64,000 nt of DNA from NCBI GenBank assembly GCA_020846365.1, contig JADLEA010000197.1, positions 9,584-73,583 of the forward strand, written 5' to 3'. Origin of the DNA: Bacteroidota bacterium. GTDB lineage: Bacteria; Bacteroidota; Ignavibacteria; UBA10030; UBA6906. This document shows positions 9,498 to 63,165 of this stretch, one piece after another (within the stretch, counting starts at the first letter, position 1; the number at the start of each line of letters is the position of its first letter). The notes below the pieces were generated by a model. It searched no databases, was not told the DNA's origin, and saw only the letters and a list, made by a program, of their open reading frames with translations. The position numbers and the translations under genes were made by a program.

Positions 9498-9631
9498 CCG
9501 GCCGGAGAACATCACCGGGAGTGGGATACGCCGGTAAGAAATCGCATCCCGACGCGCAATGCGCGACGCAGGGGTTGTCGAACAATACGCGTGGAAGACA
9601 CGCGCGCTAGAGAGAAGAGAGGAGTGCACGT

Positions 9632-44302: not shown

Positions 44303-44310
44303 GGACAGGT

Positions 44311-46473: not shown

Positions 46474-48612
46474 ATGCGCTCCCTTCTCGGCGGTGAATAC
46501 ATACCTTTCGGGACCCAATACTACCGGGCACCATCTCCGGCGCCGAGCGAGTGGGAACGCGACCTCGCCACGATTGCCCGGCTGGGTCTGAATACCGTGA
46601 AGTTCTGGATTCAATGGCGATGGAATACCCCCGGTGAGGACGAGTACGAATTCTCCGATATCGACCGGCTCATGGGTATCGCGGATCGCAACGGCCTCCG
46701 GGTGATGCTGAACACCATCGTGGACGTGGCCCCCGTCTGGATCTACCGGAAGTACCCGGATGCATCGATGGTGACGCTGGATGGCCGCAGGATCGGGCCG
46801 CAGGTGCAGCCGCACCGGCAGATCGGAGGGCTCGGACTCTGCTTTAACCATGAGCCGGCCGTAGGCCACATGATGGATTTCCTCCGCACGTCCTTTCGGC
46901 GCTACGCAGATCATCCTGCCCTTGCCATGTGGAATGTGGGGAGTGAGCCCGAGCTGACGAGCAGCATGGCTGAGCTGCGCCTCTACGCCGAAAACGCGGA
47001 ACGGATGGGAGACATGCTCTGCTATTGTCACCGGTGCGCAGCCGCATTCAAGGTCTGGCTTTCGAAGAAATATGCCACCGTCGACGCTCTGAACCGGTCC
47101 TGGAACCGCCGGTACAAGGATTTCGATGAAGTGGAACTCCCCCTGACCCGGAACAGCTTCAACGATATGATCGACTGGCGGATGTTCTTCGTCCACACGT
47201 TGGGGGAGAACGTCCGGCAACGCTTCGCTGCCGCTCAGGAAATCGACAAGGGGAAGCATCCCTTGCTCTGCCATCATGTGTTTGTTCAGGGTTTTCCTGT
47301 CACCTCTACCGCGAGTGATCCCTGGAATGTCGGCCGGTTCGGCGATCTTCATGGCATCACGCAGATGGACGATCCCATGATGTGCGACGTCGTGCGTTCC
47401 TGCGCACAGGGACGGCCCGTCATTTCCGCAGAAATGCTCATGCAGTACGGCTACACGCTGGATCTTCCCCATGCTGCCACATTCGACGATGTAAAACGCT
47501 TTGTCTTCACAGGAGTCGGAGCGAATCTAAAGGGGTTCATCTTCTGGCAATACCGTCCCGAAACTCTTGCGCGGGAAGCCCCGGCATGGGGATTGACCCA
47601 TCTGGACGGTTCCGAGACGCCGATGTTGAAGGGGTTTTGCGAGGTCAACAAGGTGTTGCAGCGAAATGCCGGGTTCCTCCTGGATGCATCACCGCGGCCG
47701 GCCGAAGTCGCGCTCCTCTACCATCCGGAGAACCAGATCTTCGGGTGGATCGCCACGGGAAACGAGAAATTCGTCACAGACTCTCTCATGGGGGCACACA
47801 GCGCCTGGTACACGGACAATTTCGGGGTGGATTTTCTCCATCCCGGCGAGATCTCCGCGGGCCTCCTGAAACGGTACAAGGTGATCGCCCTTCCCTTCCC
47901 CTACGTCCTTGGCGCGTCTCTCTGTGTGACGCTCTCCGACTGGGTGGCGGAGGGCGGGGTGTTGATCGCCGAGGCATACTGTGGCGGATGGGATATGGAG
48001 AATGGAAGGCATCACATCACGATACCGGGGTACGGACTGCACAGCGTGTTCAAGGTCCGGCAGCATACGGCTCTTCCGCCCGATCATCATGGCCGGGTGG
48101 AGATTGCTCTGACGTCGGATCTCCCGGGTCTCCCGCGCGGAACAACCCTGACCGGGTCACTCGTGCGCGAGAGCTACATTCTGGAAGGTGCGGAGGCCAT
48201 CGCCGCATATCCCGATGGAGCACCGGCGATCACCCACGCAGAACATGGAAAGGGGCATGCTTTCGCGATTGGTTCCTACATCGCACGCCCCGTCTTCCGC
48301 GACAAACACACCGCCAATGCAGCGCTGCTGGCCGCGCTTGCCGGCTGGAAGACCTCCATATCCCGGCCCCGGGTCACCGGCGATGGAAAGGTGCGAGTCG
48401 ACATATTGACCGATGCCCGGGGCGCCGCGATGATCATCATCAGAAATCTGGAGGTGGCTGCCGTTCGGGCACAGACTACTTTGCCGGGTCTGCGTCCGGG
48501 AAGAATGACCGAGCAGTTTTCCGGTGCCACCGTCGAAGCGACACACGCCGGCGGCGAGACCGTAATGCCGCTGAACCTGGCCCCGGGAGAGGTGCAGGTG
48601 TTCTGTGGCTGA
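46474..48612 (+). CDS. Beta-galactosidase, glycoside hydrolase family 42
   Basis: The N-terminal GTQYYRAPSPAPSEWERDL...GLNTVKFWIQWRWNTPGEDEYEF is the GH42 signature. The 712-aa length is typical for the family. Confidence 0.8.
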   Translation: MRSLLGGEYIPFGTQYYRAPSPAPSEWERDLATIARLGLNTVKFWIQWRWNTPGEDEYEFSDIDRLMGIADRNGLRVMLNTIVDVAPVWIYRKYPDASMVTLDGRRIGPQVQPHRQIGGLGLCFNHEPAVGHMMDFLRTSFRRYADHPALAMWNVGSEPELTSSMAELRLYAENAERMGDMLCYCHRCAAAFKVWLSKKYATVDALNRSWNRRYKDFDEVELPLTRNSFNDMIDWRMFFVHTLGENVRQRFAAAQEIDKGKHPLLCHHVFVQGFPVTSTASDPWNVGRFGDLHGITQMDDPMMCDVVRSCAQGRPVISAEMLMQYGYTLDLPHAATFDDVKRFVFTGVGANLKGFIFWQYRPETLAREAPAWGLTHLDGSETPMLKGFCEVNKVLQRNAGFLLDASPRPAEVALLYHPENQIFGWIATGNEKFVTDSLMGAHSAWYTDNFGVDFLHPGEISAGLLKRYKVIALPFPYVLGASLCVTLSDWVAEGGVLIAEAYCGGWDMENGRHHITIPGYGLHSVFKVRQHTALPPDHHGRVEIALTSDLPGLPRGTTLTGSLVRESYILEGAEAIAAYPDGAPAITHAEHGKGHAFAIGSYIARPVFRDKHTANAALLAALAGWKTSISRPRVTGDGKVRVDILTDARGAAMIIIRNLEVAAVRAQTTLPGLRPGRMTEQFSGATVEATHAGGETVMPLNLAPGEVQVFCG

Positions 48613-49867
48613 GTGGAAGCGGAGAGAAGGAACGGGTGAAGGCGATGTCAACCGGCGGAACTTCATCGCAAATATCCTGGATGGCGCGCTGTTTGCCTTT
48701 GCCATGAGTTTCGTGTCGGTCCACACGATCCTTCCGATCCTCGTGAAGAACATCGGCGGCGACAATATCGCCGTGGGGCTCGTTCCGGTGGTGTGGGTCG
48801 TCGGGTTCAATGTTCCCCAGGTGTTCGTGGCAGAGCTGACGCAGCGTCAGGCCTTCAAGAAACGCCTTGTGCTGCAGACTGCCATGTGGCAGCGTCTACC
48901 CTGGCTGCTGCTTGCCGGGATCGCGCTCTGGGCGCTGAATTACCTGAGCGCGGGCGTGTCTCTGACGTTGTTCTTCGTCGTTTTCGCTCTGGCAGCCGTT
49001 GGAGGGAGCGTGAATCTTCCGGGTTGGTTTGATCTTGTCGCCAAGCTCACGCCGGTGACGAGGCGGGGGAGGCTCTTCGGGATACGAATGCTGCTGGGCT
49101 CGGTTCTGGGCGTTGTGGGGGGAGGCCTCTCTGCTTTCATCCTCTCTTCGATCGCTTACCCGGAGAACTACGCGGTTCTCTTTCTCGCTGCATTCGCTGC
49201 AATGTTGGCCTCCTACGTTTGCCTCCTCAGCTTGCGTGAGGAGACGCCAAGCAAGCCGTCAGACCGGCAGACTCTTTCGTTCGCAGCGGTGTCCGAAGTT
49301 CTCAGGACTCAAAAGACCTTCCGGACATTTCTCATCGGTGACAGCCTGTTGATCATCTCGACGATGGGAGCGGCGTTTTATGCCGTCGTCGCGTTTCAGC
49401 GGTTTACGCTCTCGGATGCTTATGCGGGGACGTTCACGATGGTGATGATGGCTGCGACGATCGCGGCGAGCGTGGTTCTCGGCATCGCGGCAGACAGGTT
49501 CGGTCACAAGGTCAATCTGCTGGTGTCCTCCGCAGCGGTGCTCATCGGTAGCATAGGAGCGCTCATCTTTGCGACCGTGGAGCTCTATATGTTCGTATTT
49601 GTTTGTGCGGCGATCGCCGTTACGACCTCACAGATCTCCCGCCTGCCATTCCTGGCCGAGATTGCACCGGAGGCCGAGCGGCCCAAGCTCATCGCCATTG
49701 CGAACCTGGTGACGGCCCCGTGGGCGCTCTCATGGATCGGGGCCGGCTGGCTGGCGGATGTTGCAGGATACACGCCGGTCTACGTCCTGGCCGCCCTCTT
49801 TGCCGCCTCGGCATTTGCCTGGATTCACCAGATGGTACACGAGCCGCGCAGGCGTCTCGCGGCATGA
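48605..49867 (+). CDS. MFS transporter
   Basis: The ~12 hydrophobic segments suggest an MFS fold. The only in-frame start near the 5' end is GTG 48605, which overlaps the upstream stop, so the start is uncertain. Confidence 0.65.
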   Translation: MAEWKRREGTGEGDVNRRNFIANILDGALFAFAMSFVSVHTILPILVKNIGGDNIAVGLVPVVWVVGFNVPQVFVAELTQRQAFKKRLVLQTAMWQRLPWLLLAGIALWALNYLSAGVSLTLFFVVFALAAVGGSVNLPGWFDLVAKLTPVTRRGRLFGIRMLLGSVLGVVGGGLSAFILSSIAYPENYAVLFLAAFAAMLASYVCLLSLREETPSKPSDRQTLSFAAVSEVLRTQKTFRTFLIGDSLLIISTMGAAFYAVVAFQRFTLSDAYAGTFTMVMMAATIAASVVLGIAADRFGHKVNLLVSSAAVLIGSIGALIFATVELYMFVFVCAAIAVTTSQISRLPFLAEIAPEAERPKLIAIANLVTAPWALSWIGAGWLADVAGYTPVYVLAALFAASAFAWIHQMVHEPRRRLAA

Positions 49868-49884
49868 CCCGAAAGGACTCTCTT

Positions 49885-51246
49885 ATGATGCGTCTGTTCG
49901 CATTCTTCTTCATCCTTGGCCTTGCGGTCCCGGCCATTGCCCAACCGGAAGCAGGCCAGTGGCACGGTCCGGAGGAGCGATGGAAAACAGATATCCTCCT
50001 CGTGGTCGCACATCCCGACGACGAAACTGCGGTGGGTGCGTACCTTGCCCGGGCGGTCTTTGATGAAGGCAAAAGCGCGGCGATCGTCTACTGCAACAAA
50101 GGAACCGGAGGCGGAAACTCGCGCGGGGTCGAACAGGCCTCTGCCATGGGCCTGATCAGGGAGATCGAAGCCCGCCGCGCAACGGCGTTCCTGGGGATCG
50201 ACAGGGTCTGGTTTTTGAACGGCCGGGATACGCCCGGTCAGGACGTGATGCGCTCTCTGCAGGAATGGCGGCACGGGGCCTTGCTCGAAGAACTTGTCCG
50301 CATCATCCGGCTCACGCGCCCGGAAGTGATCTTCACCTGGCTCCCGCATTTCGTTGCCGGGGAAAACCATGGGGACCACCAGGCGGCTGGGGTCATCGCC
50401 ACAGAAGCGTTCGACCTGGCGGGAAACCCGACGGCGTTTCCCGCACAGATCACGCCGCCTCGAGAACCACTGGACATCGGCAACGCCACCGAGGGTTTGC
50501 GTCCCTGGCAACCCAAGAAGCTCTACTTCTTCTCCGATGCTTCACATCCTGTCGAAGGGGACGGACCTGCGTTTGATCTGGCGGCGGAGTCTCCGTCGAA
50601 GAATGTGTCGTACCTGGAACTCGGACTGCGCCTCGGGCTGCCCCACGAAACGCAAAGCGACGTGTCGGAGGTGTCGGAGGACGCACTCCGCCAGGAAGAT
50701 CCGAGATCGGTTCCCGGATATCAGCAGCGCTTCCGGCTGCTGTTTGGCAAGTCGGTGATGCGGTGCTCTCCCCGCGGGGATGTGTTCGAAGGCATTCGCT
50801 CCGGTCCCGCGGCATTTGTGCCTCCTCCGGGCTATCAGCTCCCGGATGAGATTCCGGCCCCGCTCACGCTCGGCGGTCCCTTTGCTTTCTACAGGGATTT
50901 CTGGCCTGCCCATGGAATCGAAAGGGTTGCCGATCTGGTGTCTCCCGAAATCGAGGTGAGCGCCGGAAGTTACCTGCACATTCCGCTCCTCCTCTACAAT
51001 CCATCATCGGACACCGCAACCTACAACCTGAAAGGCCGCGTTCCCGAGGGGTGGAGCATCGCAGCCGGGGAGGGGGTTGTCCGCGTACCGCCGCGGGAAC
51101 TCATGCCCGTGCAGGCATTTGTCGATTGCCCCGGCGAGCCCACGCCTGCTCCATCACTCCTCCGATGGGAGGTCCGAAAGGGAAAGGAATCGCTGGGATC
51201 GGTGAGGTTAAACGTCTCTCTTGTTGAATGGGCTTTGCCGCAATGA
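49885..51246 (+). CDS. PIG-L / LmbE family (carbohydrate esterase family 14) N-acetylglucosaminyl deacetylase, secreted, with an extra C-terminal domain
   Basis: A signal peptide is present (MMRLFAFFFILGLAVPAIAQ). VVAHPDDE is the PIG-L metal-binding motif. An AAAGGA ribosome-binding site is present. Confidence 0.75.
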   Translation: MMRLFAFFFILGLAVPAIAQPEAGQWHGPEERWKTDILLVVAHPDDETAVGAYLARAVFDEGKSAAIVYCNKGTGGGNSRGVEQASAMGLIREIEARRATAFLGIDRVWFLNGRDTPGQDVMRSLQEWRHGALLEELVRIIRLTRPEVIFTWLPHFVAGENHGDHQAAGVIATEAFDLAGNPTAFPAQITPPREPLDIGNATEGLRPWQPKKLYFFSDASHPVEGDGPAFDLAAESPSKNVSYLELGLRLGLPHETQSDVSEVSEDALRQEDPRSVPGYQQRFRLLFGKSVMRCSPRGDVFEGIRSGPAAFVPPPGYQLPDEIPAPLTLGGPFAFYRDFWPAHGIERVADLVSPEIEVSAGSYLHIPLLLYNPSSDTATYNLKGRVPEGWSIAAGEGVVRVPPRELMPVQAFVDCPGEPTPAPSLLRWEVRKGKESLGSVRLNVSLVEWALPQ

Positions 51247-53606
51247 GATCGCATTCGAGATCTTTCGGCGTGCTTGCCTTGCTCCTTCTCTCCGCATGTG
51301 GAGCCGGCACCCTCATCGGTCAGATGATCGATCCTGCCATCGACCGCGCCGACGAGCCGTTCTCGTACTTTAGTCATCCGACGGATGTGATCGGCGTGAT
51401 GGACGGGCAGGAGGCGACGCTGGTAACACCCGAGGGGTATCTCTATACGGGCTTTGGTGAGCTGATGTTCTTCGCGGGAAATCCCTTGGCCCCCATTGCC
51501 CAGAGAGTGAAGACTCTCGAGAAAGGATACCTGCCCATCCTCCGCTATGCGTACGCGTGCGACGGGATTCGATACGAAGCCTGCATGTTTGCAGCGACGC
51601 TGGATGGCAGGCCCGAGAGCCCATTGATGAACTTCATACGGTTTACGGTGATCAACCAGACTCCTCATCGCCGGCGGGCGTTCTTTGCAGCCGCGGTACG
51701 GCATCAGAACGAGGAAAACACGGACTGGGGGTTTGGCGACCACCGCTTCGCCCGCCCCGTGAAAACCGGCGTGCTCGGCGGACACGAACAGGCCGGCGTG
51801 GCGTTCAGCCCTGAGTGGGTCTATACGTTTCAGAACGATGCGTTCATCAGGGACGGCAAAGTGATGTACCTTTTCCCCCGGAACCCGTCTCCCTCCAGGA
51901 TGATGACGCTCAGGAACGGCGGGAACGAAATTCCTCCGACAGGCCCGCAGCAGATACCGTGTCTACCTTCAACTCCAGTGGGTGTCGTGGCATACGATCC
52001 GGTGCTCTCGCCCGGAGAGCACGTGGAGTTCATCTTCAAGATGCCGTATGCGCCTATTGATTCTTCCGACCGCCTCGCCGGAGAACTCCGGTATGCGACG
52101 TTCGGCGAGTACCATAAGCGCACGGTGGAATTCTGGGAAGACCTTCTCGCGCCCGGATTGGAGATCACGCTTCCTGAACCAAAGGTGATAGAGACGTTCA
52201 AGGCGAATCTGGTGTATTCTCTAATTGCCAGAAACAAGCAGGAGGGACACTTGATCCAGAAGGTCAATGAGTTTCAATACGATGCCTTTTGGATCCGGGA
52301 CGCGTCATACTTCATCCGCATGTACGATCTCTCCGGCTATCACACGATTGCGGGGGAGTGCCTGGCGTTCCTGTTGCGGTGGCAGAAGGAGGATGGGAAC
52401 TTCCTCTCACAGGGGGGGCAATTTGACGGTTGGGGACAGGCGCTTTGGGCGTACGGACAGCATGTTCGCATCACGCGCGACACCGCGTTTGCGGCCGCGG
52501 TGTATCCGGCGATGCGCCGCGCGTTTCAATGGCTTCAGACTGCCCGGCAGGGGGATCCCTACCGGCTCATCCCCACTACGACGCCTGGCGATAATGAAGA
52601 CATCACCGGGCATGTCACCGGCCACAATTTCTGGGCATTAGCCGGACTCAGGAACCTGATTTCCGTGGCGCGGGACCTCGGGAAACAGGAGGATGTGATC
52701 GAATTTTCCTCCGAATACCAGGACCTTCGTTCAGCCCTGCTCGAACGCTTGAAACTCCTGGCGCCTCTCACCGGTGGGGCCATCCCTCCGGGGCTCGATT
52801 CCCCCGGAGGACAGGACTGGGGGAACATGATGTCGGTCTACCCCGAGCAGATTCTGGATCCATTCGATTCGCTCGTCACTGCTACGCTTGAGGCGACGCG
52901 GAAGAAGTATCAGGAAGGCATTATGACGTATGGCTCCGGGAGATATCTTCATCATTATCTTACCATGAAGAACACCGAAACGGAGGTCATACGGGGAGAT
53001 CAAGAAACCGCCCTGGAGGAGTTCTACGCGGTCCTGCTTCACACGAGTTCGACACACACCGGGTTCGAGTTCTATGTCCTGCCGTGGGGCACGAGGGATT
53101 TCGGGATGAATCTCGCCCCCCACGGGTGGTTCTCGGCGAAGTTCAGGGCGTTGATGCGCAACATGCTCATTCGCGAAGAGGAGAACACGCTCCACCTGTT
53201 TTCCGTGCTTTCGCCGGCATGGATTGAGCCGGGGAAGGTCGTCGCGGTGCGGAAGGCGCCTACCACGTTTGGGACCGTGCATGCCGAACTGGCGTGCGGT
53301 CCGGGAAATGCAACGTTAACCTTGGAACCCTCCTGGCAACACGAGCCAGACGCGATCGTCATCCATGTGCCGTGGTTCATGCAGGTGGATGGCGTGAGCG
53401 CGCCGGTGGCTGACGGCGGAACCGCTGTGCTCCGTGGCGACCGGATCATTTGCGGTCCGGGAGTCAGCCGGATCGATATCGCGTGGTCCCCTTTGCCACA
53501 GCCCGCGCAGCATAGCTTTACCGCGACAGTGGAGAAGTACAAGGCAGAGTACCGCGAACGTTACGATGCATGGATGTCGGGAAGCGAACGGGGGAGTGAA
53601 CAATGA
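51243..53606 (+). CDS. Six-hairpin (alpha/alpha)6-barrel glycoside hydrolase-like lipoprotein
   Basis: The lipobox is LLLLSACGAG. The central region DAFWIRDASYFIRMYDLSGYH...EDGNF...DGWGQALWAYGQH is typical of six-hairpin glycosidases (GH15/GH63/GH78-like). The start overlaps the upstream stop (ATGA). Confidence 0.6.
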   Translation: MRSHSRSFGVLALLLLSACGAGTLIGQMIDPAIDRADEPFSYFSHPTDVIGVMDGQEATLVTPEGYLYTGFGELMFFAGNPLAPIAQRVKTLEKGYLPILRYAYACDGIRYEACMFAATLDGRPESPLMNFIRFTVINQTPHRRRAFFAAAVRHQNEENTDWGFGDHRFARPVKTGVLGGHEQAGVAFSPEWVYTFQNDAFIRDGKVMYLFPRNPSPSRMMTLRNGGNEIPPTGPQQIPCLPSTPVGVVAYDPVLSPGEHVEFIFKMPYAPIDSSDRLAGELRYATFGEYHKRTVEFWEDLLAPGLEITLPEPKVIETFKANLVYSLIARNKQEGHLIQKVNEFQYDAFWIRDASYFIRMYDLSGYHTIAGECLAFLLRWQKEDGNFLSQGGQFDGWGQALWAYGQHVRITRDTAFAAAVYPAMRRAFQWLQTARQGDPYRLIPTTTPGDNEDITGHVTGHNFWALAGLRNLISVARDLGKQEDVIEFSSEYQDLRSALLERLKLLAPLTGGAIPPGLDSPGGQDWGNMMSVYPEQILDPFDSLVTATLEATRKKYQEGIMTYGSGRYLHHYLTMKNTETEVIRGDQETALEEFYAVLLHTSSTHTGFEFYVLPWGTRDFGMNLAPHGWFSAKFRALMRNMLIREEENTLHLFSVLSPAWIEPGKVVAVRKAPTTFGTVHAELACGPGNATLTLEPSWQHEPDAIVIHVPWFMQVDGVSAPVADGGTAVLRGDRIICGPGVSRIDIAWSPLPQPAQHSFTATVEKYKAEYRERYDAWMSGSERGSEQ

Positions 53607-53652: not shown

Positions 53653-55332
53653 ATGACCCGGATTACGAGACGGCGGTTTCTCACATCGGCGGCTTTCGCG
53701 GGTCTTGGTGCCGCGGTCGGCTCCGCGTCGGCCTTCCCCTCTCCCTCGATTCTGACACGCCCACGGACTATCCGCTCGACCGCTGCGGGGAATCTCGAGT
53801 TTCGTCCGTATCCGGTTCAAAGGGCCCGCGGACCTCACCTGCTCGATTGGGCATATGCGAGTGATGTGCGAGGTGACGCCTTTCACTCCAACATCACCGC
53901 ATCGGCGGCAGGCGTGACAATTTCCGATACAGAAGGGAAAGACGAGTTTGCGGTCGAGGTGCGGTGGAATGTGGAAGGGTTTGGCTATCTGTTCCTCACG
54001 GCGGACAATGGCGGGGAGTTCTACCGGCTTCCGCATGCGGGAAGAACCACGACGCTGCACCTTGGATTTGAACTGGCACGTAGCAGGGTCTCGCGCAATC
54101 AGCGCCGTTTGCGTCACCACACGGCCCACGGCTACCAGCCGTCGCGTGAGACCCGTGCCCTCTTGGACCTGTCCGAAGGCCTGCTGGAGGAGGCAACGAA
54201 GAGCCGGGGAGATGCCGAACGATGCGCAGCGATCTCCCAAAGGGCGCTGTTGCATGCCCTTCATGCCAGCGAACTGCTGGAACTGGAGAAATGTCGCCAC
54301 GATATCGGAATGCAAAATCCGCGAAAGGAATTCCTCTTCGGTTGCGATGCCCGGGCGTTCTACGAAATGGACAAGGATCACTTCCTCGAGCTCTTCAGCC
54401 GCGCGTTCAACTACGCGACCATCACGCACGTATGGACAGACTCGGACAACCTTGAGGACTTTGAGCCGGCAGAAGGCCAGTTCCAGTTTGGTATGCGCGA
54501 TCTGATGCTGGGCGAGCTCCGCCGCAAAGGGATCACGGTGGAAGGAAGGCCGCTCTTCTGGTTTCACACGTGGGTGACCCCCGGGTGGCTCAAGACCAAA
54601 TCCTATGACCAGCTGCTCTCCTATGTAGAGCGGACGACCCGGCAGGTGGTGCAGCACTACGGCGACTCGATGTATGCCTGGGAGATCGTGAATGAACTCC
54701 ACGATTGGGCCAACGAGTGCGGCCTCAGGCCCGAACAGACCGTCGAGCTCACCCGGTTGGCATGCGACGTTGCCAAAGCTGTCGCGCCGAACGTGCACCG
54801 GCTAGTGAACAATTGTTGTCCGTTCGCCGAATACGTCCAGCTCGGCAAATGGTCCGGACAACCGGCCCTCTATCCACAACGAACCCCCTGGCAGTTTACG
54901 CGGGATCTGGTGGATGCGGGCGTGGACTTTACCTTGCTGGGCCAGCAGATGTACTTCCCTTATCGGGATATTCAGGATATCGCTCTCTCCCTTGAACGTC
55001 TGGAACAGTTCAAGAGGCCGGTGCAGATCTCCGAAATAGGCGCGCCTGGAGGGCCGACAGAGTACTCGATCAAGCTCGGGAAGTACTCCTGGCCGAAAGA
55101 ACCTTATGCGTGGCGCAGACACTGGGATGAGGAACTGCAGGCCGATTGGCTGGAGGGAGTGTTTACCGTCGCCTACAGCAAATCGTGGATCGAGGCGGCC
55201 AACTGGTTCGACTTTGTTGATCCCTACCACTACATCGAAAACGGGGGGCTTCTGCGGTCGCCAAAGGGAGAGACCAAGGCCGCCTACGACCGCCTCCTGG
55301 CGCTCAGGGAAAAATGGAACCGCCGGGTGTGA
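53653..55332 (+). CDS. GH10-like (clan GH-A) glycoside hydrolase with a Tat signal and an N-terminal domain of unknown function; paralog 1 of 3
   Basis: The Tat motif is MTRITRRRFLTSAAFAGLGAAVGSASA. The catalytic-region motifs are HTWVTPGWL, YAWEIVNELHDWAN, LVNNCCPFAEY and VQISEIGAPG. Confidence 0.65.
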   Translation: MTRITRRRFLTSAAFAGLGAAVGSASAFPSPSILTRPRTIRSTAAGNLEFRPYPVQRARGPHLLDWAYASDVRGDAFHSNITASAAGVTISDTEGKDEFAVEVRWNVEGFGYLFLTADNGGEFYRLPHAGRTTTLHLGFELARSRVSRNQRRLRHHTAHGYQPSRETRALLDLSEGLLEEATKSRGDAERCAAISQRALLHALHASELLELEKCRHDIGMQNPRKEFLFGCDARAFYEMDKDHFLELFSRAFNYATITHVWTDSDNLEDFEPAEGQFQFGMRDLMLGELRRKGITVEGRPLFWFHTWVTPGWLKTKSYDQLLSYVERTTRQVVQHYGDSMYAWEIVNELHDWANECGLRPEQTVELTRLACDVAKAVAPNVHRLVNNCCPFAEYVQLGKWSGQPALYPQRTPWQFTRDLVDAGVDFTLLGQQMYFPYRDIQDIALSLERLEQFKRPVQISEIGAPGGPTEYSIKLGKYSWPKEPYAWRRHWDEELQADWLEGVFTVAYSKSWIEAANWFDFVDPYHYIENGGLLRSPKGETKAAYDRLLALREKWNRRV

Positions 55333-55359
55333 TTTGAAAAACGATCGGAGACTCAAGAT

Positions 55360-56949
55360 ATGACGTCAACGCAACGCGGTGAACTTGTTTTTGTCCCCAC
55401 CTTCGTTCAGAGCGGACGAGGACCACACCTTCTTGATTGGGCGTATGCCTCGGACACGCACTGGGACGCTTTCCATTCGAACATTGCCGTTACGAAGGAA
55501 GGGGTGGCCATTTCGGACACGGAAGGGAGGGAGAAGTTCGGCATTGACGTCCGCTGGAATGTCGAGGGCTTCGGATATCTCTATATTACCGCGGACAACG
55601 CGGGTGAATACTACACGCTTCCTCCGCCGGGCGAGACACGGAAGCTCAGTCTGAATGTTGAGCTTGCCCGGAGCCGGGTGACGCGCAACAAACGGCGCCT
55701 CGCGCTCCATCAAACGGACGGTTGGCTGCCGTCGCGCGAAACACGAACATTTGTAGATCTCTCCGAAGGATTGTTGCAGGGCGGCATGAACATTCGCGGA
55801 GACGAAACGAGACGCGCGGATCTCGCCCAACAGGCGCTCCGGTATGCGATGTGGGCAGGCGAGATGATTGAGCTGGAGAAGGCACGCGCGACCATCCTTC
55901 GCCAGGGACGCCGCGATCGGTTCTTCACGGGATGTGACGCCCGGGGGTACTATCAAATGGACGTGGAATTGTTCCTTAAGAACTTCACAGAGCTCTTCGA
56001 CTACGCCACCATCACGCACTACCTCATCGCCGGGGTGTTCGAGGATTTCGAGCCGGAAGAGGGGAATAAGCAGTACGGCCTCCGAGATGTCCTGTTCAAG
56101 GAACTCCGGAAACGAAACATCGTCGTGGAAGGAAGGCCGCTCTGGTGGTCGTACCGCACGACAACGCCCGACTGGCTCCGGCGGAAATCCTATGACGAGG
56201 TGCGGAAGTACGTCGAGCAGCATGTCCGGGAGGTGGTGGGCCACTATGGCGACGGCATGTATGCTTGGGAAGTGGTCAACGAATTCCATGACTGGGCGAA
56301 CGAATGCCAGTTGACGCCCGACCAGATCATCGAAGTCACGCGGCTGGCCTGTGACGTCGCCCGGGATACCAATCCCAAAGTCCACCGGCTCATAAACAAC
56401 TGCTGCCCCTTTGCGGAATATGTGCAGCTCAAGAAGTGGACGGAACTGGATGCAAAGTACCCGCAACGAACCCCATGGCAGTTCATGAAGGCCCTGACTG
56501 ACGCGGGGGTGGACTACACGATTGCCGGACAGCAAATGTACTTTCCGTACCGGGATATGGCAGACACGATCATTCTGGTCGACCGGCTGGAGCAGTTCGG
56601 GCGACCGGTGCAACTCACGGAGGTGGGGGCTTCGGCGGGACCTTCTCCGGAATCGCTGCAGTCGGGAAAACTTCCGCTGTCCTTCGAGCCGTATCAGTGG
56701 CACCGCCCCTGGGACGAAGAGCTTCAGGCCGACTGGATGGAGCAGCTCTACACGCTTGCGTATGCGCGCCCGTTCATTGAGGCAGTGAACTGGTATGACT
56801 TCGTCGACCCGTTCTCCTGGATCCCGAATGGCGGCTTCCTCCGTTCGCCCAAAGGGGAACCGAGGGCTATCGTGGACCGCCTGCTCAAACTCCAGGCCGA
56901 ATGGAAGGCCCTGCCTCCGGCAGGTCAGACGCAGGGAAAACGGAAATGA
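55360..56949 (+). CDS. GH10-like glycoside hydrolase paralog 2 of 3, with no signal peptide
   Basis: It has the same domain order as paralog 1: the N-terminal GPHLLDWAYASD domain, then YAWEVVNEFHDWAN ... VQLTEVGASAGP. It starts directly at the mature-like sequence MTSTQRGELVF. Confidence 0.65.
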   Translation: MTSTQRGELVFVPTFVQSGRGPHLLDWAYASDTHWDAFHSNIAVTKEGVAISDTEGREKFGIDVRWNVEGFGYLYITADNAGEYYTLPPPGETRKLSLNVELARSRVTRNKRRLALHQTDGWLPSRETRTFVDLSEGLLQGGMNIRGDETRRADLAQQALRYAMWAGEMIELEKARATILRQGRRDRFFTGCDARGYYQMDVELFLKNFTELFDYATITHYLIAGVFEDFEPEEGNKQYGLRDVLFKELRKRNIVVEGRPLWWSYRTTTPDWLRRKSYDEVRKYVEQHVREVVGHYGDGMYAWEVVNEFHDWANECQLTPDQIIEVTRLACDVARDTNPKVHRLINNCCPFAEYVQLKKWTELDAKYPQRTPWQFMKALTDAGVDYTIAGQQMYFPYRDMADTIILVDRLEQFGRPVQLTEVGASAGPSPESLQSGKLPLSFEPYQWHRPWDEELQADWMEQLYTLAYARPFIEAVNWYDFVDPFSWIPNGGFLRSPKGEPRAIVDRLLKLQAEWKALPPAGQTQGKRK

Positions 56950-56956
56950 GGACCCC

Positions 56957-58606
56957 ATGAGCAGATTGACCCGCCGAACATTTCTGCAATCGGGCGCAAC
57001 AGTTGCCGCAGCCGCTGTCGGGGCGCCCCTGTTCACCCCGTTGCGGCCTTTGTTTGCAGGGACGTCGGAGGATATGCTCTTCCGCGTGCACACCGATTCG
57101 ACCGCCCCGGCACCCGACTTCGTCTATGCGACGGACGATCTCGAGGATCCGTTCCGCTCGGCGATCCGGCTCACCAGAGATGGCGTTGTCGTTCCGCAGG
57201 AATTCGGCGACCGGCGCTTTTCGGTGCATACCCGCTGGTACGTGAAGGATTTTGGTTGGGTATGGCTTGCGGCGGACAACGCCGGCGAGCTTTACAGCCG
57301 TTCGGATCTTCCTTCAGGACGGACGCTTGACCTGAATGTGGAGTTTGCCCGCAGTCGTGTGTCACGGAACCGGGACGTGCGCAAGCGGTACGAACAGGAC
57401 GGGACAGTCTTCTCTCCCGAGGTGATCAACCTGACGGAGGCCTCGGAGGAGCTTCTTGCGTCCTGCCTGAAGGCAGAGGGGAGAGGAGACAAGGCGTTGC
57501 GGTCCGCCGACCGGGCTCTGGCGAACGCCATGTGGGCAGGGGAAAAGATTGAACTGGAACGCGCTCAGGATATCATCGCGAGACGTAAGCGGGCAGACAG
57601 AGTCTGGTTCGGCTGCGAAACCCGCCAGTTCATCTGGGGGAAATCGGAAGACACCATCAACAGGTTCATGGAGCTGTTCAATTTCGCCACCGTCACACAC
57701 TACGTTTGGGACACCTGGTACGAGCTGTTCGAGCCGAAGGAGGGATACTACAACTGGGGGATCAAAGACAATATCGTACACTGGCTCTCTCAACACGGCA
57801 TTACCCTTGAAGGCCGGCCGCTGTACTGGCCACACCCCAGCGTAACACCCGATTGGCTGACGCAGAAAGACTTCGACGGCGTCAGGAAGTACCTTGACCG
57901 CCATGTGCGTGACCTGGTGCTGCACTATGGGGACAAGGTCTTGCAGTGGGAAGTTGTAAATGAAATGCACGACTGGGCGAATGTGCATCATTTTTCGCCC
58001 GACCAGATCACGCAACTGGTCCGGCTCGCATGTGACACGACGCGTGCAACACATCCCGGTGTCGTACGGATCATCAACAACTGCTGCCCCTTCGCGGAAT
58101 ATGTTGCCCGCGGGCGTCAGTCGAGGGCTGATGCAAAACGCCCGTTGCGGTCCCCACGGAGGTTCGTGCAGGACCTTCTGGATGCAGGCGTGGAGTTCGA
58201 CGTTCTCGGGATCCAGATCTACTTTCCTCAGCGCGACCTGTCGGATATCGTCCGCCTGCTCGAGCGGTTCGAGAAGTTCAAGAAGCCCTTGTACATTACG
58301 GAGATCGGAGCGAGTTCGAACCTCCACGCTCCTTCCGCCACCGGCGCCGTGACGGGAAACCCCGCGGACCCGTATGGCTGGCACCGACATTGGGATGAGG
58401 GTCTTCAGGCGGACTGGCTGGAGCAAGTGTACACGCTGTACTATAGCCGTCCTTCGGTGAAGGCGATTAACTGGTATGACTTCTCTGATTTTCGACCCTT
58501 TATCATCAATGGGGGGTTGGTCCGTGAGGATGCGACCACCAAGCAGTCGTATCACCGGCTGAAGCAGCTCCTCGCATCATGGGGTGCACTTCCGCCTCAA
58601 CTTTGA
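56957..58606 (+). CDS. GH10-like glycoside hydrolase paralog 3 of 3, with a Tat signal
   Basis: The Tat motif is MSRLTRRTFLQSGATVAAAAVGAPL. The catalytic motifs are LQWEVVNEMHDWAN ... LYITEIGASSN. The start at 56957 is placed 8 nt after the upstream stop. Confidence 0.65.
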   Translation: MSRLTRRTFLQSGATVAAAAVGAPLFTPLRPLFAGTSEDMLFRVHTDSTAPAPDFVYATDDLEDPFRSAIRLTRDGVVVPQEFGDRRFSVHTRWYVKDFGWVWLAADNAGELYSRSDLPSGRTLDLNVEFARSRVSRNRDVRKRYEQDGTVFSPEVINLTEASEELLASCLKAEGRGDKALRSADRALANAMWAGEKIELERAQDIIARRKRADRVWFGCETRQFIWGKSEDTINRFMELFNFATVTHYVWDTWYELFEPKEGYYNWGIKDNIVHWLSQHGITLEGRPLYWPHPSVTPDWLTQKDFDGVRKYLDRHVRDLVLHYGDKVLQWEVVNEMHDWANVHHFSPDQITQLVRLACDTTRATHPGVVRIINNCCPFAEYVARGRQSRADAKRPLRSPRRFVQDLLDAGVEFDVLGIQIYFPQRDLSDIVRLLERFEKFKKPLYITEIGASSNLHAPSATGAVTGNPADPYGWHRHWDEGLQADWLEQVYTLYYSRPSVKAINWYDFSDFRPFIINGGLVREDATTKQSYHRLKQLLASWGALPPQL

Positions 58607-58616
58607 AAGGGTGTGC

Positions 58617-60068
58617 ATGACCGGCAAAGAACGTCTGATGGTGACATTCCGGGGGGGCAAGGCGGATCATGTCCCGGCATGTCCGGATATCTCCGTTATG
58701 GTTCCTGCGAAGCTCACCGGAAGACCGTTCCATGAATTGTTCCTCGATGGCCGCGAGCATTCCGGCTGGACCTCTGCGACGTATGCGGAAGCTTACGTGA
58801 AGGCAGTGGAGTACTTCGGGATCGATGGCTGGTACATCTATGGAGGCCTCAAAGAACTCCGGCCTGAGGGCTCGCCGCAGTGGAAAGACCTGGTCACCGA
58901 ACGGGGAGACGCGAAGTTGGTGACACGATCCTGCGAGACGCCTCTCGGCCCTCTCGCGGAGTCCGAAATCTATTTTGCCGATGAACCTCCCTGGCGGGAA
59001 TCCAAGCCGGTGAAAGATCTGCGCGTCGACTTCCCCAGATTGACACAGCTGATGGGATTGGGGCCCTGGGAATGGTCGAAGTCATACACCGATCGTCATC
59101 TGATAGGTGACCGCGGCGTCTATGTGGGGATGGTACCCGTGTTTCAGGATTGGTGGTTCAACTACAGGAACGGGGGATTCGATCAGGTCCTTCAGGACTT
59201 TGTCGACGAGCCGGAGTACATGGACGAAGTCCACGAGTTCTGGATGGAGTGGGCTCTGACGTATACAAAGGCCATGATCGCTGCGCGGCCGGACGAGATC
59301 ATGCTGGGAGGTTCGAGCGCCAGCTTGAGTATCAGCTCGCCCGGACTCTTCCGCAAGTATGAGCTGCCCTTTCTCCAGCGAGCGTCCCGTCTCTGCAAAG
59401 AAGCAGGCATCATCTCGCACTTGCATATCTGCGGAAAGTCATGGAGGCTGGTGGAGATCGTCGCCGAACAGACGGATGTGGATGTCATGGAACCGATGGA
59501 AGAGCCACCCGGAGGGGACGTGGACCTGGCGGAAGCCAAACGGCGGGTGGGAAACAAGCTCTGTATCAAAGGAAACATCAACACGTTTGATTTCATGTTG
59601 AACGCAACTCCGGACCAGGTAAAGGAGAAGTGCAAGAGGGCCATTGATGCGGCAGGGGCAGACGGCGGCTTCGTGCTGTCCACGGGCGACCAGTGCGGAA
59701 GGGATACTCCCCACGCAAACCTCTTTGCGATGGTCGAAGTAGCACACACATACGGGAACTACGGATGCGCATTGTGTCCGTTGGTGCCACGCTCCTTGTT
59801 TCAACGCTCATGGCGGCTGCACAGTCCGTCACGCTTCTCCACGATGATGCGGTGGTCTGGTCCCGCGCCCAGACCATTCGCGGTGTTGCCTCGTTCGTGC
59901 CCACGCAGGATGGCATACTGTATGTCAACGGCACCGGCATACCACTCCAATTTGCCAGTGCGGTGGACACATTCAGCATCTCCGTTACACTCTCGGACGG
60001 CGTCAACACGGTGTGGGCAGTTCTGGACAGCGCGGGAACCACGGTATCGTCGGATACCCTCTTTCTGA
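58617..60068 (+). CDS. Uroporphyrinogen decarboxylase (URO-D) / MtaA-CmuA family protein; the 3' end is uncertain because there is no stop until 60068 and the tail overlaps the next gene
   Basis: Family-like sequence runs from MTGKERLMVTFRGG through ...DGGFVLSTGDQCGRDTPHANLFAMVEVAHTYGNY (about 380 aa, ending near 59760). The following ~100 aa are Arg/Ser/Pro-rich and overlap the amylase gene's signal peptide and N-terminus in another frame. Confidence 0.55.
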   Translation: MTGKERLMVTFRGGKADHVPACPDISVMVPAKLTGRPFHELFLDGREHSGWTSATYAEAYVKAVEYFGIDGWYIYGGLKELRPEGSPQWKDLVTERGDAKLVTRSCETPLGPLAESEIYFADEPPWRESKPVKDLRVDFPRLTQLMGLGPWEWSKSYTDRHLIGDRGVYVGMVPVFQDWWFNYRNGGFDQVLQDFVDEPEYMDEVHEFWMEWALTYTKAMIAARPDEIMLGGSSASLSISSPGLFRKYELPFLQRASRLCKEAGIISHLHICGKSWRLVEIVAEQTDVDVMEPMEEPPGGDVDLAEAKRRVGNKLCIKGNINTFDFMLNATPDQVKEKCKRAIDAAGADGGFVLSTGDQCGRDTPHANLFAMVEVAHTYGNYGCALCPLVPRSLFQRSWRLHSPSRFSTMMRWSGPAPRPFAVLPRSCPRRMAYCMSTAPAYHSNLPVRWTHSASPLHSRTASTRCGQFWTAREPRYRRIPSF

Positions 60069-62152
60069 CGATGGGGTATCGCATCCGCCCGGACATCGAA
60101 GCGGTCGCCGCGGTCAACGGGCGCAATGTGCTGCTGACTGCCTCCGTGCTCGAAAACCCCGACAGCGTCCAGATGTCCATGCACTGGACGCAGCACCCGG
60201 GCAATCCCATGCCCCTTGCGCTGTCCGGTCAGGATGCCTCGGAATGCACGGCGGTCTTTCCCCCTGAAGCTCCTTCGGGCGACTACAGCTTTTCCGTAAC
60301 GACGGCGTGTTCAGATGGCGACACTGTTTTGGCGGGGGCCCTCGTGAGGGTGGATGGGGATTCCGTTCGCGCGTTCGTTCCACAGACGGATCATGCCCGC
60401 TGGATTGACAGTGCCATTGTGTACGGCGTCACGCCGTACATTTTCGTGGAGGACGGGAGATTCCCGCACATCACGGCAAAGATCCCCGAGCTTGCACAAC
60501 TCGGCATCACGGCGCTCTGGCTCCAGCCTGTGTACATGACTCATGGGGGAGGGCAGGGGTACGATGTCACTGACTATTTCCGGATCCGCCCTGACCTCGG
60601 CACGGAGGCGGAGCTTCGGGAGCTTGTTCAGACCGCCCATGCACACGGCCTGCGCGTCCTGTTGGACTTCATACCCAATCACAGCTCCATCTACCATCCC
60701 TATGCGGTTCATGCTGCGGAATACGGCACGGCGTCACACTACTATCATTTCTATCAACGCACGCCTGACAGCGCGCCGTACTCACAGCACTATCATACCT
60801 ATCAGGGATTCATCAACTACTTCTGGAACGAACTTCCCAATTTCAACTATGACCACCCGGAACTCCAACGAATGGTGCTGGAGGCCGGAAAGCACTGGAT
60901 TGAGAAACTCGATATCGACGGATACCGCATAGACGCTGCCTGGGGAGTCAACGCGCGCAAACCGGAATTCATGAAGTCGTGGCGGCTGGCATTGAAACGG
61001 GTCAAGCCATCGGTGTTTCTGCTCGGGGAGGACAAGGCCTCATGGGCTTCCGTCTTTGACGAACGCGTTGACGCCGCGTATGACTGGGCTCCGGATATCA
61101 GCTGGGTTTCGGAGTGGGTCTGGCAGACCGATTACAGCACATCCAGTAACCCCACGATCTTCAATTCCGTATCTCAGGGCTCCCGTGTTGGCGCATTGCG
61201 GTCGGCGATGACAAACCGCGGCACGGGATACGCCCCGACGGCGAAGATTCTCCGGTTCATGGAGAACAACGACACGTTCAGGTTCCTCGCGACGCACGAT
61301 CTGGCCCGCACGAAAATGGTTGCGGCGATGATGTTTTCGATTGCCGGAGTTCCGCTGCTCTTCAACGGACAGGAAACAGGAGTCTCGGCACACCCATACG
61401 ACGCGTTTCAAATCTTTGTGCCGCATCGGACGATTGCCTCCCTCGACCAATTCGGACTTTTCCCGTACTACCGGCTTCTCTGCACCATGCGCAAGCGCCT
61501 CCCTGCGCTGTGGGGCCGGAACTTTGAAGAAGTTCCGGTCGGATCGGGACCCAATGTCTATGCATACCGGCGGTGGGAAGGGAGAGAAAATATTCTGGGA
61601 GTGGTGAACCTCGGGTCTTCCCCGGCCTCCATCAAGACGCTCCTGCCGGTCTCCCGTATGGACCTGGATTCGCTGAAGGCGTATTTCCTCACCGATCAGA
61701 TCACGAACGAGGTGGTGCAGACGACAGCGGGGCAAATGGATTCGCTCGCGCTCCAGATTCCGGGTTACACCACCAGGGTGTACGTGATCGATACCACGAC
61801 GGTTACCGGGATCTTCGAAACGCCCGCAATGGCAGAAATCCCCGGAAAATTTGCGCTGGAACAGAACTTCCCCAATCCATTCAATCCCGTCACCGGCATC
61901 ACGTATCAGGTGCCGGGCTATGCGGGCAGGGCCGAAGGGGGAAGCGCTGTGCGGCTTGTCGTGTACGATCTGCTCGGGAGGGAGATTGCCGTGCTGGTCG
62001 ACGAGTATAAACCGCCCGGGGTTTACATTGCACAGTTCGATGGGCGGGGCCTGGCGAGCGGCGTCTACTTCTACCGGCTCTCCGCCGGCAACGAAACGGC
62101 TCCATCGACCCGGAATCTGATACAGATACGCAAGATGGTCCTGCTCAAGTGA
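59765..62152 (+). CDS. Alpha-amylase family (GH13) enzyme with N-terminal accessory domains and a C-terminal T9SS sorting domain
   Basis: A signal peptide is present (MRIVSVGATLLVSTLMAAAQS). The GH13 regions are GLRVLLDFIPNHSS, DGYRIDAAWGV, FLLGED and FMENNDTFR. The T9SS tail is LEQNFPNPFNPVTGITYQVP...LVVYDLLGREI...GVYFYRL...KMVLLK. Confidence 0.8.
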   Translation: MRIVSVGATLLVSTLMAAAQSVTLLHDDAVVWSRAQTIRGVASFVPTQDGILYVNGTGIPLQFASAVDTFSISVTLSDGVNTVWAVLDSAGTTVSSDTLFLTMGYRIRPDIEAVAAVNGRNVLLTASVLENPDSVQMSMHWTQHPGNPMPLALSGQDASECTAVFPPEAPSGDYSFSVTTACSDGDTVLAGALVRVDGDSVRAFVPQTDHARWIDSAIVYGVTPYIFVEDGRFPHITAKIPELAQLGITALWLQPVYMTHGGGQGYDVTDYFRIRPDLGTEAELRELVQTAHAHGLRVLLDFIPNHSSIYHPYAVHAAEYGTASHYYHFYQRTPDSAPYSQHYHTYQGFINYFWNELPNFNYDHPELQRMVLEAGKHWIEKLDIDGYRIDAAWGVNARKPEFMKSWRLALKRVKPSVFLLGEDKASWASVFDERVDAAYDWAPDISWVSEWVWQTDYSTSSNPTIFNSVSQGSRVGALRSAMTNRGTGYAPTAKILRFMENNDTFRFLATHDLARTKMVAAMMFSIAGVPLLFNGQETGVSAHPYDAFQIFVPHRTIASLDQFGLFPYYRLLCTMRKRLPALWGRNFEEVPVGSGPNVYAYRRWEGRENILGVVNLGSSPASIKTLLPVSRMDLDSLKAYFLTDQITNEVVQTTAGQMDSLALQIPGYTTRVYVIDTTTVTGIFETPAMAEIPGKFALEQNFPNPFNPVTGITYQVPGYAGRAEGGSAVRLVVYDLLGREIAVLVDEYKPPGVYIAQFDGRGLASGVYFYRLSAGNETAPSTRNLIQIRKMVLLK

Positions 62153-63165
62153 AAACGCTCGTTCTTGGCGGAACCGGATTTCTCAGCGGCGCGCTTGTGC
62201 GTCATTTGCTGAGGGAAGGGCATGCCGTCACTATCGTCACGCGGGGAACGATTCCTCCCGACCCCGCCTGCGAGTCGATAGCCGCTGATCGCAGTGATGC
62301 CACGGTCCTGGCAGCCGCGGTGGCGGGGAGAAGGTTCGATGCCGTCTACGACATGATCGCCTACGAGCCCGAGGCCAGCAAAGCTGCGGCCAGAATCTTC
62401 AGAGGTTCAATAGGGAGGTTTATTCACTGCAGCACAATCTCCGTCTATATGGTCTCCCGGGACGTGCAGTGTCCCATCACGGAAGACCAGGCACATGCAC
62501 CGCTCATGGAGCACTGGCCACGGAATCCGTTCGGGATGGACTATGGCATCAAGAAGCGGCAGTGCGAAGAAACACTCTGGAACCATCATGACTCGCGGCT
62601 CTTTCCGGTTAGCATCCTGAGACCGACGTTTATTAGCGGTCCGGCCGATCCCGCAAAACGGGACTGGTTCTGGATCAAGCGGCTGTTGGACGGGCGCCCG
62701 CTTCTTATTCCGGGTTCAGGGGACTATGCATTCCAGCAGGCGTACGTCGATGATGTTGCGCGCATGTTTGTCCGGTTGCTCACCTGTCCGGAAAGCATCG
62801 GGAAGGCCTACAACGTCGCGGCGGAGGAAGTGTTTTCGTTCAGGGAGTATCTGGATATGCTTTCCGCGCTCCTGGGAAGGAAGCCGGCGTGTGCCCATCT
62901 CCGCCAGGAGGAGTTTGACCGTCTCCCGATAAGTTCGTCCCACGAAGGGGACGTCTTTCCCTTCAACGTGCGGCGGACTGCGGTGTTCAGTCTGGACCAG
63001 ATCAAGCAGGATCTTGGCTATCGTTCAACTCCTTGGAAGGTCTGGATGCAAGAGACCATTCGCTGGTGGTCCGCCCCGGGTCGGGGTGACGGCTACGGCT
63101 GGTCGAATCGTGAGGAAGAGGTCCGGATCGCGACCCAACTACTTGACACAAAGGTGACCGGATGA
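62149..63165 (+). CDS. NAD-dependent epimerase/dehydratase family (extended SDR) protein
   Basis: The N-terminal motif is LVLGGTGFLSGALVRHLL. The start is GTG and overlaps the amylase stop (GTGA). Confidence 0.75.
   Translation: MKTLVLGGTGFLSGALVRHLLREGHAVTIVTRGTIPPDPACESIAADRSDATVLAAAVAGRRFDAVYDMIAYEPEASKAAARIFRGSIGRFIHCSTISVYMVSRDVQCPITEDQAHAPLMEHWPRNPFGMDYGIKKRQCEETLWNHHDSRLFPVSILRPTFISGPADPAKRDWFWIKRLLDGRPLLIPGSGDYAFQQAYVDDVARMFVRLLTCPESIGKAYNVAAEEVFSFREYLDMLSALLGRKPACAHLRQEEFDRLPISSSHEGDVFPFNVRRTAVFSLDQIKQDLGYRSTPWKVWMQETIRWWSAPGRGDGYGWSNREEEVRIATQLLDTKVTG

Follow-up and report, generated by a model that had tools for sequence, protein, structure and literature searches.

Three tandem GH10-like paralogs with a shared N-terminal module and different predicted localisation in a sugar-utilisation operon of a Bacteroidota bacterium

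Cytoplasmic glycoside hydrolase family 10 (GH10) enzymes without signal peptides, such as IXT6 from Geobacillus stearothermophilus and XynB from Paenibacillus barcinonensis, work on oligosaccharides that have been imported, next to GH10 enzymes that are exported. In canonical GH10 xylanases the -1/-2 subsites are formed by Glu43, Asn44, Lys47, His80, Trp84, Gln203, His205, Trp273, and Trp281 (numbering of Cex from Cellulomonas fimi), residues that typify xylanases but are not a CAZy criterion for GH10 membership. A window of 64,000 nucleotides (positions 9,584 to 73,583 of contig JADLEA010000197.1, assembly GCA_020846365.1) from a Bacteroidota metagenome-assembled genome (MAG) contains three consecutive genes, here called P1, P2, and P3, whose products combine a GH10-like domain with an N-terminal module and differ in their predicted localisation. 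The solved structure closest to them is that of AcXyn10A (8B73), a reported Acetivibrio clariflavus endo-beta-1,4-xylanase that is 41% identical to Fsa02490Xyn from Fervidibacter sacchari, an experimentally characterised GH10 enzyme which is also active on beta-glucan and gellan gum.

The three genes (Table 1) are separated by 27 nt (P1-P2) and 7 nt (P2-P3) and their products match exactly, and at the same lengths, the NCBI gene calls MCC6396940.1, MCC6396941.1, and MCC6396942.1, respectively, all of which are named endo-1,4-beta-xylanase. The window has a G+C content of about 60% and nearly all of its genes are on the plus strand. Pairwise BLASTP over the full length gave 59% identity for P1 and P2 (E = 0), 41% for P1 and P3 (E 3e-139), and 45% for P2 and P3 (E 1e-155), values that reflect real paralogy and not chance, and together with the open reading frames they bear out the initial annotation, which had proposed three tandem paralogs from the letters of the DNA. 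The motifs on which that proposal was based are present: GPHLLDWAYASD and VRWNVEGFGY are found in P1 and P2 and in a diverged form in P3, and W[EQ]VVNE..HDWAN and [IL][ST]E[IV]GA are found in the paralogs, P1 having the version ISEIGA.

All three proteins belong to GH10 by sequence similarity and by fold, as had been proposed when a GH10-like core of clan GH-A was assigned to them. Scores against the Pfam profile PF00331 were 49.8 (P1), 54.3 (P2), and 67.5 bits (P3), which all exceed the gathering score of 22.1, and the matches span approximately positions 45-305 of the 311-position profile (about 84%) and, on the protein side, the region from about residue 230 to the C-terminus. Beyond GH10, the Pfam scan of P1-P3 gave nothing significant and only near-threshold matches to signals for twin-arginine translocation (Tat). 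When a profile of the GH10-like family was searched against the PDB, 134 sequences were matched at E <= 0.001; the 60 matches listed comprise 57 GH10-type xylanases, 2 computationally designed proteins, and 1 protein named 'family 48' by its depositor, and the best among them is AcXyn10A (E 1.2e-24). An AlphaFold2 model of P2 obtained with an 82-sequence alignment (pLDDT 92.2, pTM 0.93) consists of three parts, a beta-sandwich (residues 8-97), three long helices (98-182), and a (beta/alpha)8 barrel (189-516). The best 50 Foldseek matches of this model in the PDB are GH10 xylanases, except for two engineered enzymes on a GH10 scaffold, with target-normalised TM-scores of 0.64-0.78, and the best of them is again 8B73 (E 1.3e-17, 21% identity). 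The intracellular GH10 xylanases 3emc, 2q8x, and 3ms8 are also among these matches, in which the identity of P2 to solved xylanases is only 14-21%.

In order to compare active sites, the family profile was aligned with Xyn10B from Thermotoga and with 8B73. The acid/base region WEVVNE (N307, E308 in P2) aligns with the canonical WDVVNE of Xyn10B and is kept, and the nucleophile region TE421VGA aligns with ITEMD, the Glu being retained and the Asp that follows it (Asp235) being replaced by Gly423. Trp84 and Gln203 are also kept, and the second Trp on strand 8 is not conserved, the paralogs having W, Y, or F there. No variation at N307, E308, or E421 occurs across 82 sequences, and in a larger set of 241 these three residues, like the Gln on strand 6, are conserved to at least 90%. 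In these 241 homologues, 125 positions, including the family's active-site residues named here and below, are at least 90% conserved and identical across both deep clades of the family described below. Like the canonical xylanases Xyn10B from Thermotoga (3NIY, 1VBR), Xyn10A from Streptomyces lividans, and Cex, the P1-P3 family combines a (beta/alpha)8 fold with an Asn-Glu acid/base pair on strand 4 and a nucleophilic Glu on strand 7, and it has Gln on strand 6 and a Trp that follows strand 3. It differs from them in an identity of only 14-20%, in an extra invariant segment, NNCCPFAEY, located after strand 5, and in the N-terminal module. With AcXyn10A it shares a GC motif on strand 1, the acid/base motif W[DE]V[IV]NE, a long insertion after strand 7 with an EE.QA motif, and the C-terminal motif W[WY]DF.D, whereas AcXyn10A, a protein of 413 amino acids, lacks the 186-residue N-terminal module. 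As judged from the alignments, the catalytic machinery of a retaining glycosidase is intact in P1-P3, whereas the sugar-binding -1/-2 subsites differ from those of a typical xylanase and the canonical set of subsite residues is not found.

The N-terminal module, of about 186 amino acids, is modelled alone with the same confidence as in the full protein (pLDDT 92.8) and has no counterpart among Pfam families even at E <= 10. Searches of the PDB gave a best E-value of 0.13 with a sequence profile and of 0.12 with Foldseek (TM <= 0.36), the latter matches being just generic immunoglobulin-like domains and helix bundles, and similarity to Pfam families or solved structures does not assign the module to carbohydrate-binding modules or other known accessory domains. 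The initial description of a domain of unknown function holds after structure prediction, but 'novel' applies to Pfam and the PDB only, as hundreds of public homologues carry the module and it extends into a wider GH10 subclade. Searching 1.84 billion representative proteins with a module profile retrieved 266 cluster representatives at E <= 0.001. The distant carriers among them are proteins of 600-1450 amino acids that match chiefly the last strands and the helices (profile positions of about 55-182). Pairing of the module with other catalytic domains was looked for in 10 distant carriers and was not seen: eight have a GH10 domain downstream and the remaining two gave CarboxypepD_reg matches alone. 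The profile matches and the downstream GH10 domains indicate that the module is a clade-specific extension of a GH10 subclade and not a mobile domain. A set of large proteins (P0280, P0284, P0286, P0287, P0321, and P0364; 780-1450 amino acids) combines the helical part of the module with GH10 and with CarboxypepD_reg, CARDB, and PEGA repeats, Pfam GH10 being missing from P0286 and P0287, and these proteins suggest surface-anchored versions of the GH10 subclade in other organisms. Multi-domain GH10 proteins with the helical part (P0284, P0321, P0364, and others; 600-1450 amino acids) have the same last strands and three-helix part upstream of GH10 as P1-P3, from which they differ by their extra CarboxypepD_reg, CARDB, and PEGA domains and by being much more diverged.

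The N-termini of the three paralogs point to different compartments. P1 begins with MTRITRRRFLTSAAFAGLGAAVGSASA, in which the motif TRRRFLT is followed by SAAFAGLGAAVGSASA, and P3 begins with MSRLTRRTFLQSGATVAAAAVGAP, in which TRRTFLQ is followed by SGATVAAAAVGAP; both show a TRRxFL twin-arginine motif, a moderately hydrophobic stretch, and a cleavage site with small residues. Some homologues pass the Pfam model TAT_signal (PF10518) or bear names of Tat-signal proteins. P2 starts directly at the conserved module, its residue 1 aligning with residue 40 of P1 in BLASTP. P2 shares its frame with the TGA stop codon of P1 at position 55330, 27 nt upstream, and between this stop and ATG 55360 there is no other start codon, so that no signal is possible on P2. 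A hidden signal peptide on P2 was considered and is excluded by the in-frame stop, by the C-terminus of P1, which aligns with the ends of its paralogs, and by the conservation of the short form, and the cytoplasmic location predicted in the initial annotation is supported, the NCBI call giving the same protein of 529 amino acids. In domain scans, P1-P3 showed neither a type IX secretion tail nor a lipoprotein signal, whereas type IX tails are present on the neighbouring GH13 protein and on further proteins of the window. Tat export in the presence of an outer membrane and without type IX tails predicts that P1 and P3 are periplasmic and P2 cytoplasmic. Of the extracellular and intracellular steps first suggested, the difference in compartment for one and the same chemistry has strong comparative support in the Tat / no signal / Tat order kept in orthologous arrays and in the mature proteins of the P1/P2 clade, where Tat-type and signal-less forms are told apart by one fixed site only, while 'extracellular' has to be replaced by periplasmic. 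Several candidate type IX cargo proteins with Por_Secre_tail are encoded in the window in the regions 26-2809, 26553-28532, 34866-35849, and 59765-62152, among them a subtilase, a 659-residue protein, and the GH13 protein, and a PorV-like gene is present as well, which indicates an outer-membrane lineage with type IX secretion and fits an origin from Bacteroidota or an Ignavibacteriota-like group.

Homologues of P2 and P3 form 821 and 547 clusters, respectively, among the candidates scored, and in public databases they are automatically named endo-1,4-beta-xylanase. When one genome per species was scanned, 268 relatives came to light, mostly in Ignavibacteriales and Melioribacteraceae, with a Melioribacter roseus MAG (locus L049) and the cultured Rosettibacter primus among the carriers; others belong to KSB1, Calditrichaceae, Neomarinimicrobiota, Rhodothermales, Kryptoniota, and a few Acidobacteriota. 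Same-strand arrays of GH10-like genes are present in 86 loci from Ignavibacteriota, KSB1, Marinimicrobia, Rhodothermales, and other groups, complete arrays having 2-5 copies and single-copy loci being mostly short or truncated contigs. When N-termini were classified by a coordinate-based method, 176 of the 272 copies in these loci had an RR motif (Tat-type), 74 had no room for a signal, and 20 were ambiguous. Of the 86 loci, 58 contain both kinds, and Tat / none / Tat is the array seen most often. One subgroup of homologues from Ignavibacteria with 542 amino acids (L012, L015-L018, L021, L024, L025) has a conserved N-terminal extension of 24 residues, M[AST]KKILKESSIAGINAEIITEKRT, without an RR motif, which differs both from a Tat signal and from the short form. 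The array is embedded in a recurring gene order: GFO/IDH/MocA oxidoreductase, AP_endonuc_2, GH42, MFS transporter, in some loci PIG-L and a 792-residue protein, then the GH10-like array, in some loci a URO-D-like gene, GH13, and epimerase. In a neighbour-joining tree, two deep clades are seen, one with P1/P2-type and one with P3-type proteins; 15 fixed substitutions separate the two clades, and the signal-less forms group mostly together. The closest orthologues reach 86% identity to P2 and 82% to P3 (its own NCBI record, at 100%, excluded), compared with 41-59% between the paralogs. By these comparisons the duplication is older than the divergence of several phyla, the paralogy being ancient and maintained.

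On balance, and with moderate confidence, we favour the reading that P1-P3 are retaining beta-glycanases of a divergent GH10 subfamily which form a periplasm-then-cytoplasm relay on imported oligosaccharides. The three ancient paralogs would be co-transcribed as part of a long operon for sugar utilisation, conserved in FCB-group (Fibrobacteres-Chlorobi-Bacteroidetes) bacteria. P1 and P3 would be exported by the Tat system, already folded, to the periplasm and cleave beta-linked oligosaccharides there, the fragments would be imported, probably via the adjacent MFS transporter, and P2 would complete cleavage of the same type in the cytoplasm. The split between the P1/P2 and P3 clades may correspond to a different preference for linkage or length, and the N-terminal module may extend the structure so as to shape the substrate cleft or to mediate oligomerisation.

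Several observations weigh against this relay. The twin-arginine signals, described at first as clear, have the motif, but P1 (15.9) and P3 (14.9) score just under the cut-off of 16.7 of TIGR01409 and P3 (15.5) is under the cut-off of 22.7 of PF10518. In the -1/-2 subsites, the family has GRPLxW in place of the canonical GHTLVW or GHPLCW, so that His80 is replaced by an invariant Arg259; it has GQQMY in place of GxQxH, His205 being replaced by an invariant Tyr394; and ATITHY stands in the place of TPENxMKW, so that the Glu43/Asn44/Lys47 motif becomes T219-H220. Together with the change from Asp235 to Gly423, these replacements could also mean an altered or weakened activity. The plain annotation is favoured by AcXyn10A and Fsa02490Xyn, the characterised enzymes closest to the family, both of which are endo-xylanases. 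Activity, substrate, and endo or exo mode are predicted for all members from similarity, and the role given to the module is a guess.

With the relay as the favoured reading, its substrate would be a beta-glycan within reach of GH10 chemistry, for which xylo-oligosaccharide is the default guess. A non-xylan glycan, possibly charged or decorated, appears at least as likely because of the replaced -1/-2 residues and because no xylan genes are found in the annotated flanks. It is possible, if rather doubtful, that P1-P3 are instead ordinary endo-1,4-beta-xylanases and that the array provides periplasmic and cytoplasmic hydrolysis of xylo-oligosaccharides, as with IXT6 and XynB. The uniform database names, the xylanases that are the best neighbours in sequence and structure, including AcXyn10A with its reported 41% identity to Fsa02490Xyn, the intracellular xylanases among the structural matches, and a GH39-like gene nearby all agree with such a view. 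P2 resembles IXT6 and XynB in being a signal-less GH10 protein, and both enzymes are among its structural matches; unlike P1-P3, they have no N-terminal module, do not occur in tandem arrays with Tat-exported paralogs, and are encoded in xylan-utilisation clusters. Identity to solved xylanases is low, and the Arg259 exchange is invariant in the family while AcXyn10A keeps the canonical His (GHPLCWH) and other module-bearing relatives (about 500-550 amino acids) retain GHPLxW and WDVINE, which makes Arg259 specific to the narrower family; Tyr394 is common to the narrower family and these relatives. In the window and six annotated related loci, no Pfam family for xylose isomerase, xylulokinase, GH43, GH67/115, or acetyl-xylan esterase was found. 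In Melioribacter roseus, canonical xylan genes form a cluster of their own (Mros2087-2093), and the 2013 genome paper of this species lists as GH10 only Mros2091 and Mros2495, neither of which is discussed within such an array. No characterised member of the family came up in a literature search on 8B73, AcXyn10A, Rosettibacter, GH10 of Melioribacter, and GH10 together with URO-D, which yielded just the distant AcXyn10A, Fsa02490Xyn, and the canonical xylanases of M. roseus. The changed subsites, the lack of xylan Pfam families nearby, and the separate xylan cluster of M. roseus count against a xylan assignment, and the xylan or xylo-oligosaccharide substrate implied at the outset is not supported by subsite residues or gene context. 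More specifically, and only tentatively, Arg259, Tyr394, and the module may mark a GH10 subfamily with non-xylan specificity, for instance for a bacterial or algal polysaccharide containing uronic acids; the module would then be part of the cleft, and the operon, with its GH10-like array, URO-D-like protein, secreted GH13, GH42, and glycoside-3-dehydrogenase-like pair, would be an undescribed pathway of polysaccharide utilisation that is widespread in Ignavibacteriota, KSB1, Marinimicrobia, and Rhodothermales.

It is improbable that the three genes are redundant tandem duplicates without division of labour, the loss of the signal in P2 being incidental or an assembly artefact. Their tandem arrangement would agree with redundancy, as would the single fixed difference in the mature protein between those members of the P1/P2 clade that are Tat-type and those that lack a signal. 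However, the duplication predates the divergence of several phyla and orthologues are much closer to each other than paralogs are, the signal-less form is kept in 74 copies that fall mostly into one cluster of the tree, the Tat / none / Tat order recurs, the independent NCBI gene call gives the same P2, and the P3 clade is set apart by its 15 fixed substitutions. Very improbable is a non-hydrolytic role (binding proteins, transglycosylases, or other chemistry) with which the replacement of several canonical subsite residues, the large, conserved module rich in polar invariant residues, and the linkage to an unusual URO-D / MtaA-like gene might be reconciled, as the conservation of the catalytic Glu pair, the preceding Asn, and the strand-6 Gln is the pattern of an active retaining glycosidase and transglycosylation would still be GH10 chemistry.

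Table 1. Coordinates of the GH10-like array and of its neighbouring genes in the window
Feature	Position	Strand	Remarks
P1 (paralog 1)	53653-55332	+	559 aa; Tat-type signal ~residues 1-27, N-terminal module ~40-225, then GH10-like (beta/alpha)8 domain
P2 (paralog 2)	55360-56949	+	529 aa; module residues 1-186, GH10-like barrel 189-516; N307-E308, E421, R259, Y394
P3 (paralog 3)	56957-58606	+	549 aa; Tat-type signal, module ~residues 32-214, then GH10-like domain; second deep clade
N-terminal module as modelled in P2	55360-55917	+	beta-sandwich (strands residues 8-97), helices 98-119, 126-143, 149-182
GFO/IDH/MocA oxidoreductase	44299-45471	+	conserved upstream partner
Xylose-isomerase-like TIM barrel (AP_endonuc_2)	45538-46464	+	conserved upstream partner
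GH42	46474-48612	+	conserved upstream partner
MFS transporter	48605-49867	+	conserved upstream partner
PIG-L deacetylase	ORF 49603-51246, likely start 49888	+	conserved upstream partner
792-aa protein	51228-53606	+	weak (alpha/alpha)6 glucoamylase-like matches; insert of variable occurrence, directly upstream of array
URO-D / MtaA-like protein	58617 to ~59764, here reads on to 60068	+	conserved downstream partner
GH13 amylase-family protein with type IX secretion tail	59765-62152	+	conserved downstream partner
NAD-dependent epimerase	62149-63165	+	conserved downstream partner

Pfam and NCBIfam matches of about 35 genes of the window include GH92, GH106, GH42, GH13, PIG-L, a levoglucosan-dehydrogenase-like GFO protein, and the URO-D / MtaA-like protein, and an attempt to deduce the substrate from these neighbours gave a mixed picture without a clear target glycan. 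The best NCBIfam match of the GFO/IDH/MocA protein is levoglucosan dehydrogenase (181.8 bits, below the cut-off). Its gene is always paired with that for the xylose-isomerase-like TIM barrel directly upstream of GH42-MFS (window, L002, L005, L012, and others), and the pair resembles oxidative 3-keto-glycoside cleavage systems of Bacteroides and of levoglucosan degraders. The mechanically predicted open reading frame for PIG-L opens with TTG 49603, in overlap with the MFS gene; a start at ATG 49888 (MRLFAFFFILGLAVPAIA, signal-like) is likely and gives about 452 amino acids, relatives having 453-456. The 792-residue protein has a signal-like N-terminus and weak 'oligosaccharide amylase' or MGH1-like matches, and it is present in 15 of the 86 related loci, whereas the closest relatives in synteny (L001, L002) lack it.

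Downstream of the array, a URO-D-family protein, resembling MtaA/CmuA methyltransferases and scoring well below the family cut-offs, lies between the array and GH13 in 36 of the 86 loci; the complete genome CP070762.1 (L004), whose module is minimal, still has it. One idea for its presence in a sugar operon is O-demethylation of methylated sugars. In the window (region 59700-60068) this gene has no stop codon where relatives end with TYG[RK]Y*; it reads TYGNYGCALC and continues for about 100 extra codons, thereby covering the start of GH13 (ATG 59765) in a different frame. Either a mutation (GGA where the stop is expected) or a sequencing error may account for this loss.

The fold, the family, and the gene calls of P1-P3 were already known and the three proteins already deposited, whereas the N-terminal module, the variant with Arg in place of His, and the array of mixed localisation in a widespread operon are without description in Pfam or the papers searched. 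In metagenomic surveys of Ignavibacteriota, KSB1, Marinimicrobia, and Rhodothermales, such proteins are routinely entered as xylanases. Should their specificity differ, the xylan-degrading potential of sediments, groundwater, and hot springs would be overestimated and a widespread glycan operon would be mislabelled. The pairing of Tat-exported and cytoplasmic isoenzymes would offer a clean natural example of one chemistry distributed over two compartments, and as Rosettibacter primus and Melioribacter roseus, the latter a species represented here by a MAG, are carriers in culture, the question of the substrate is directly testable.

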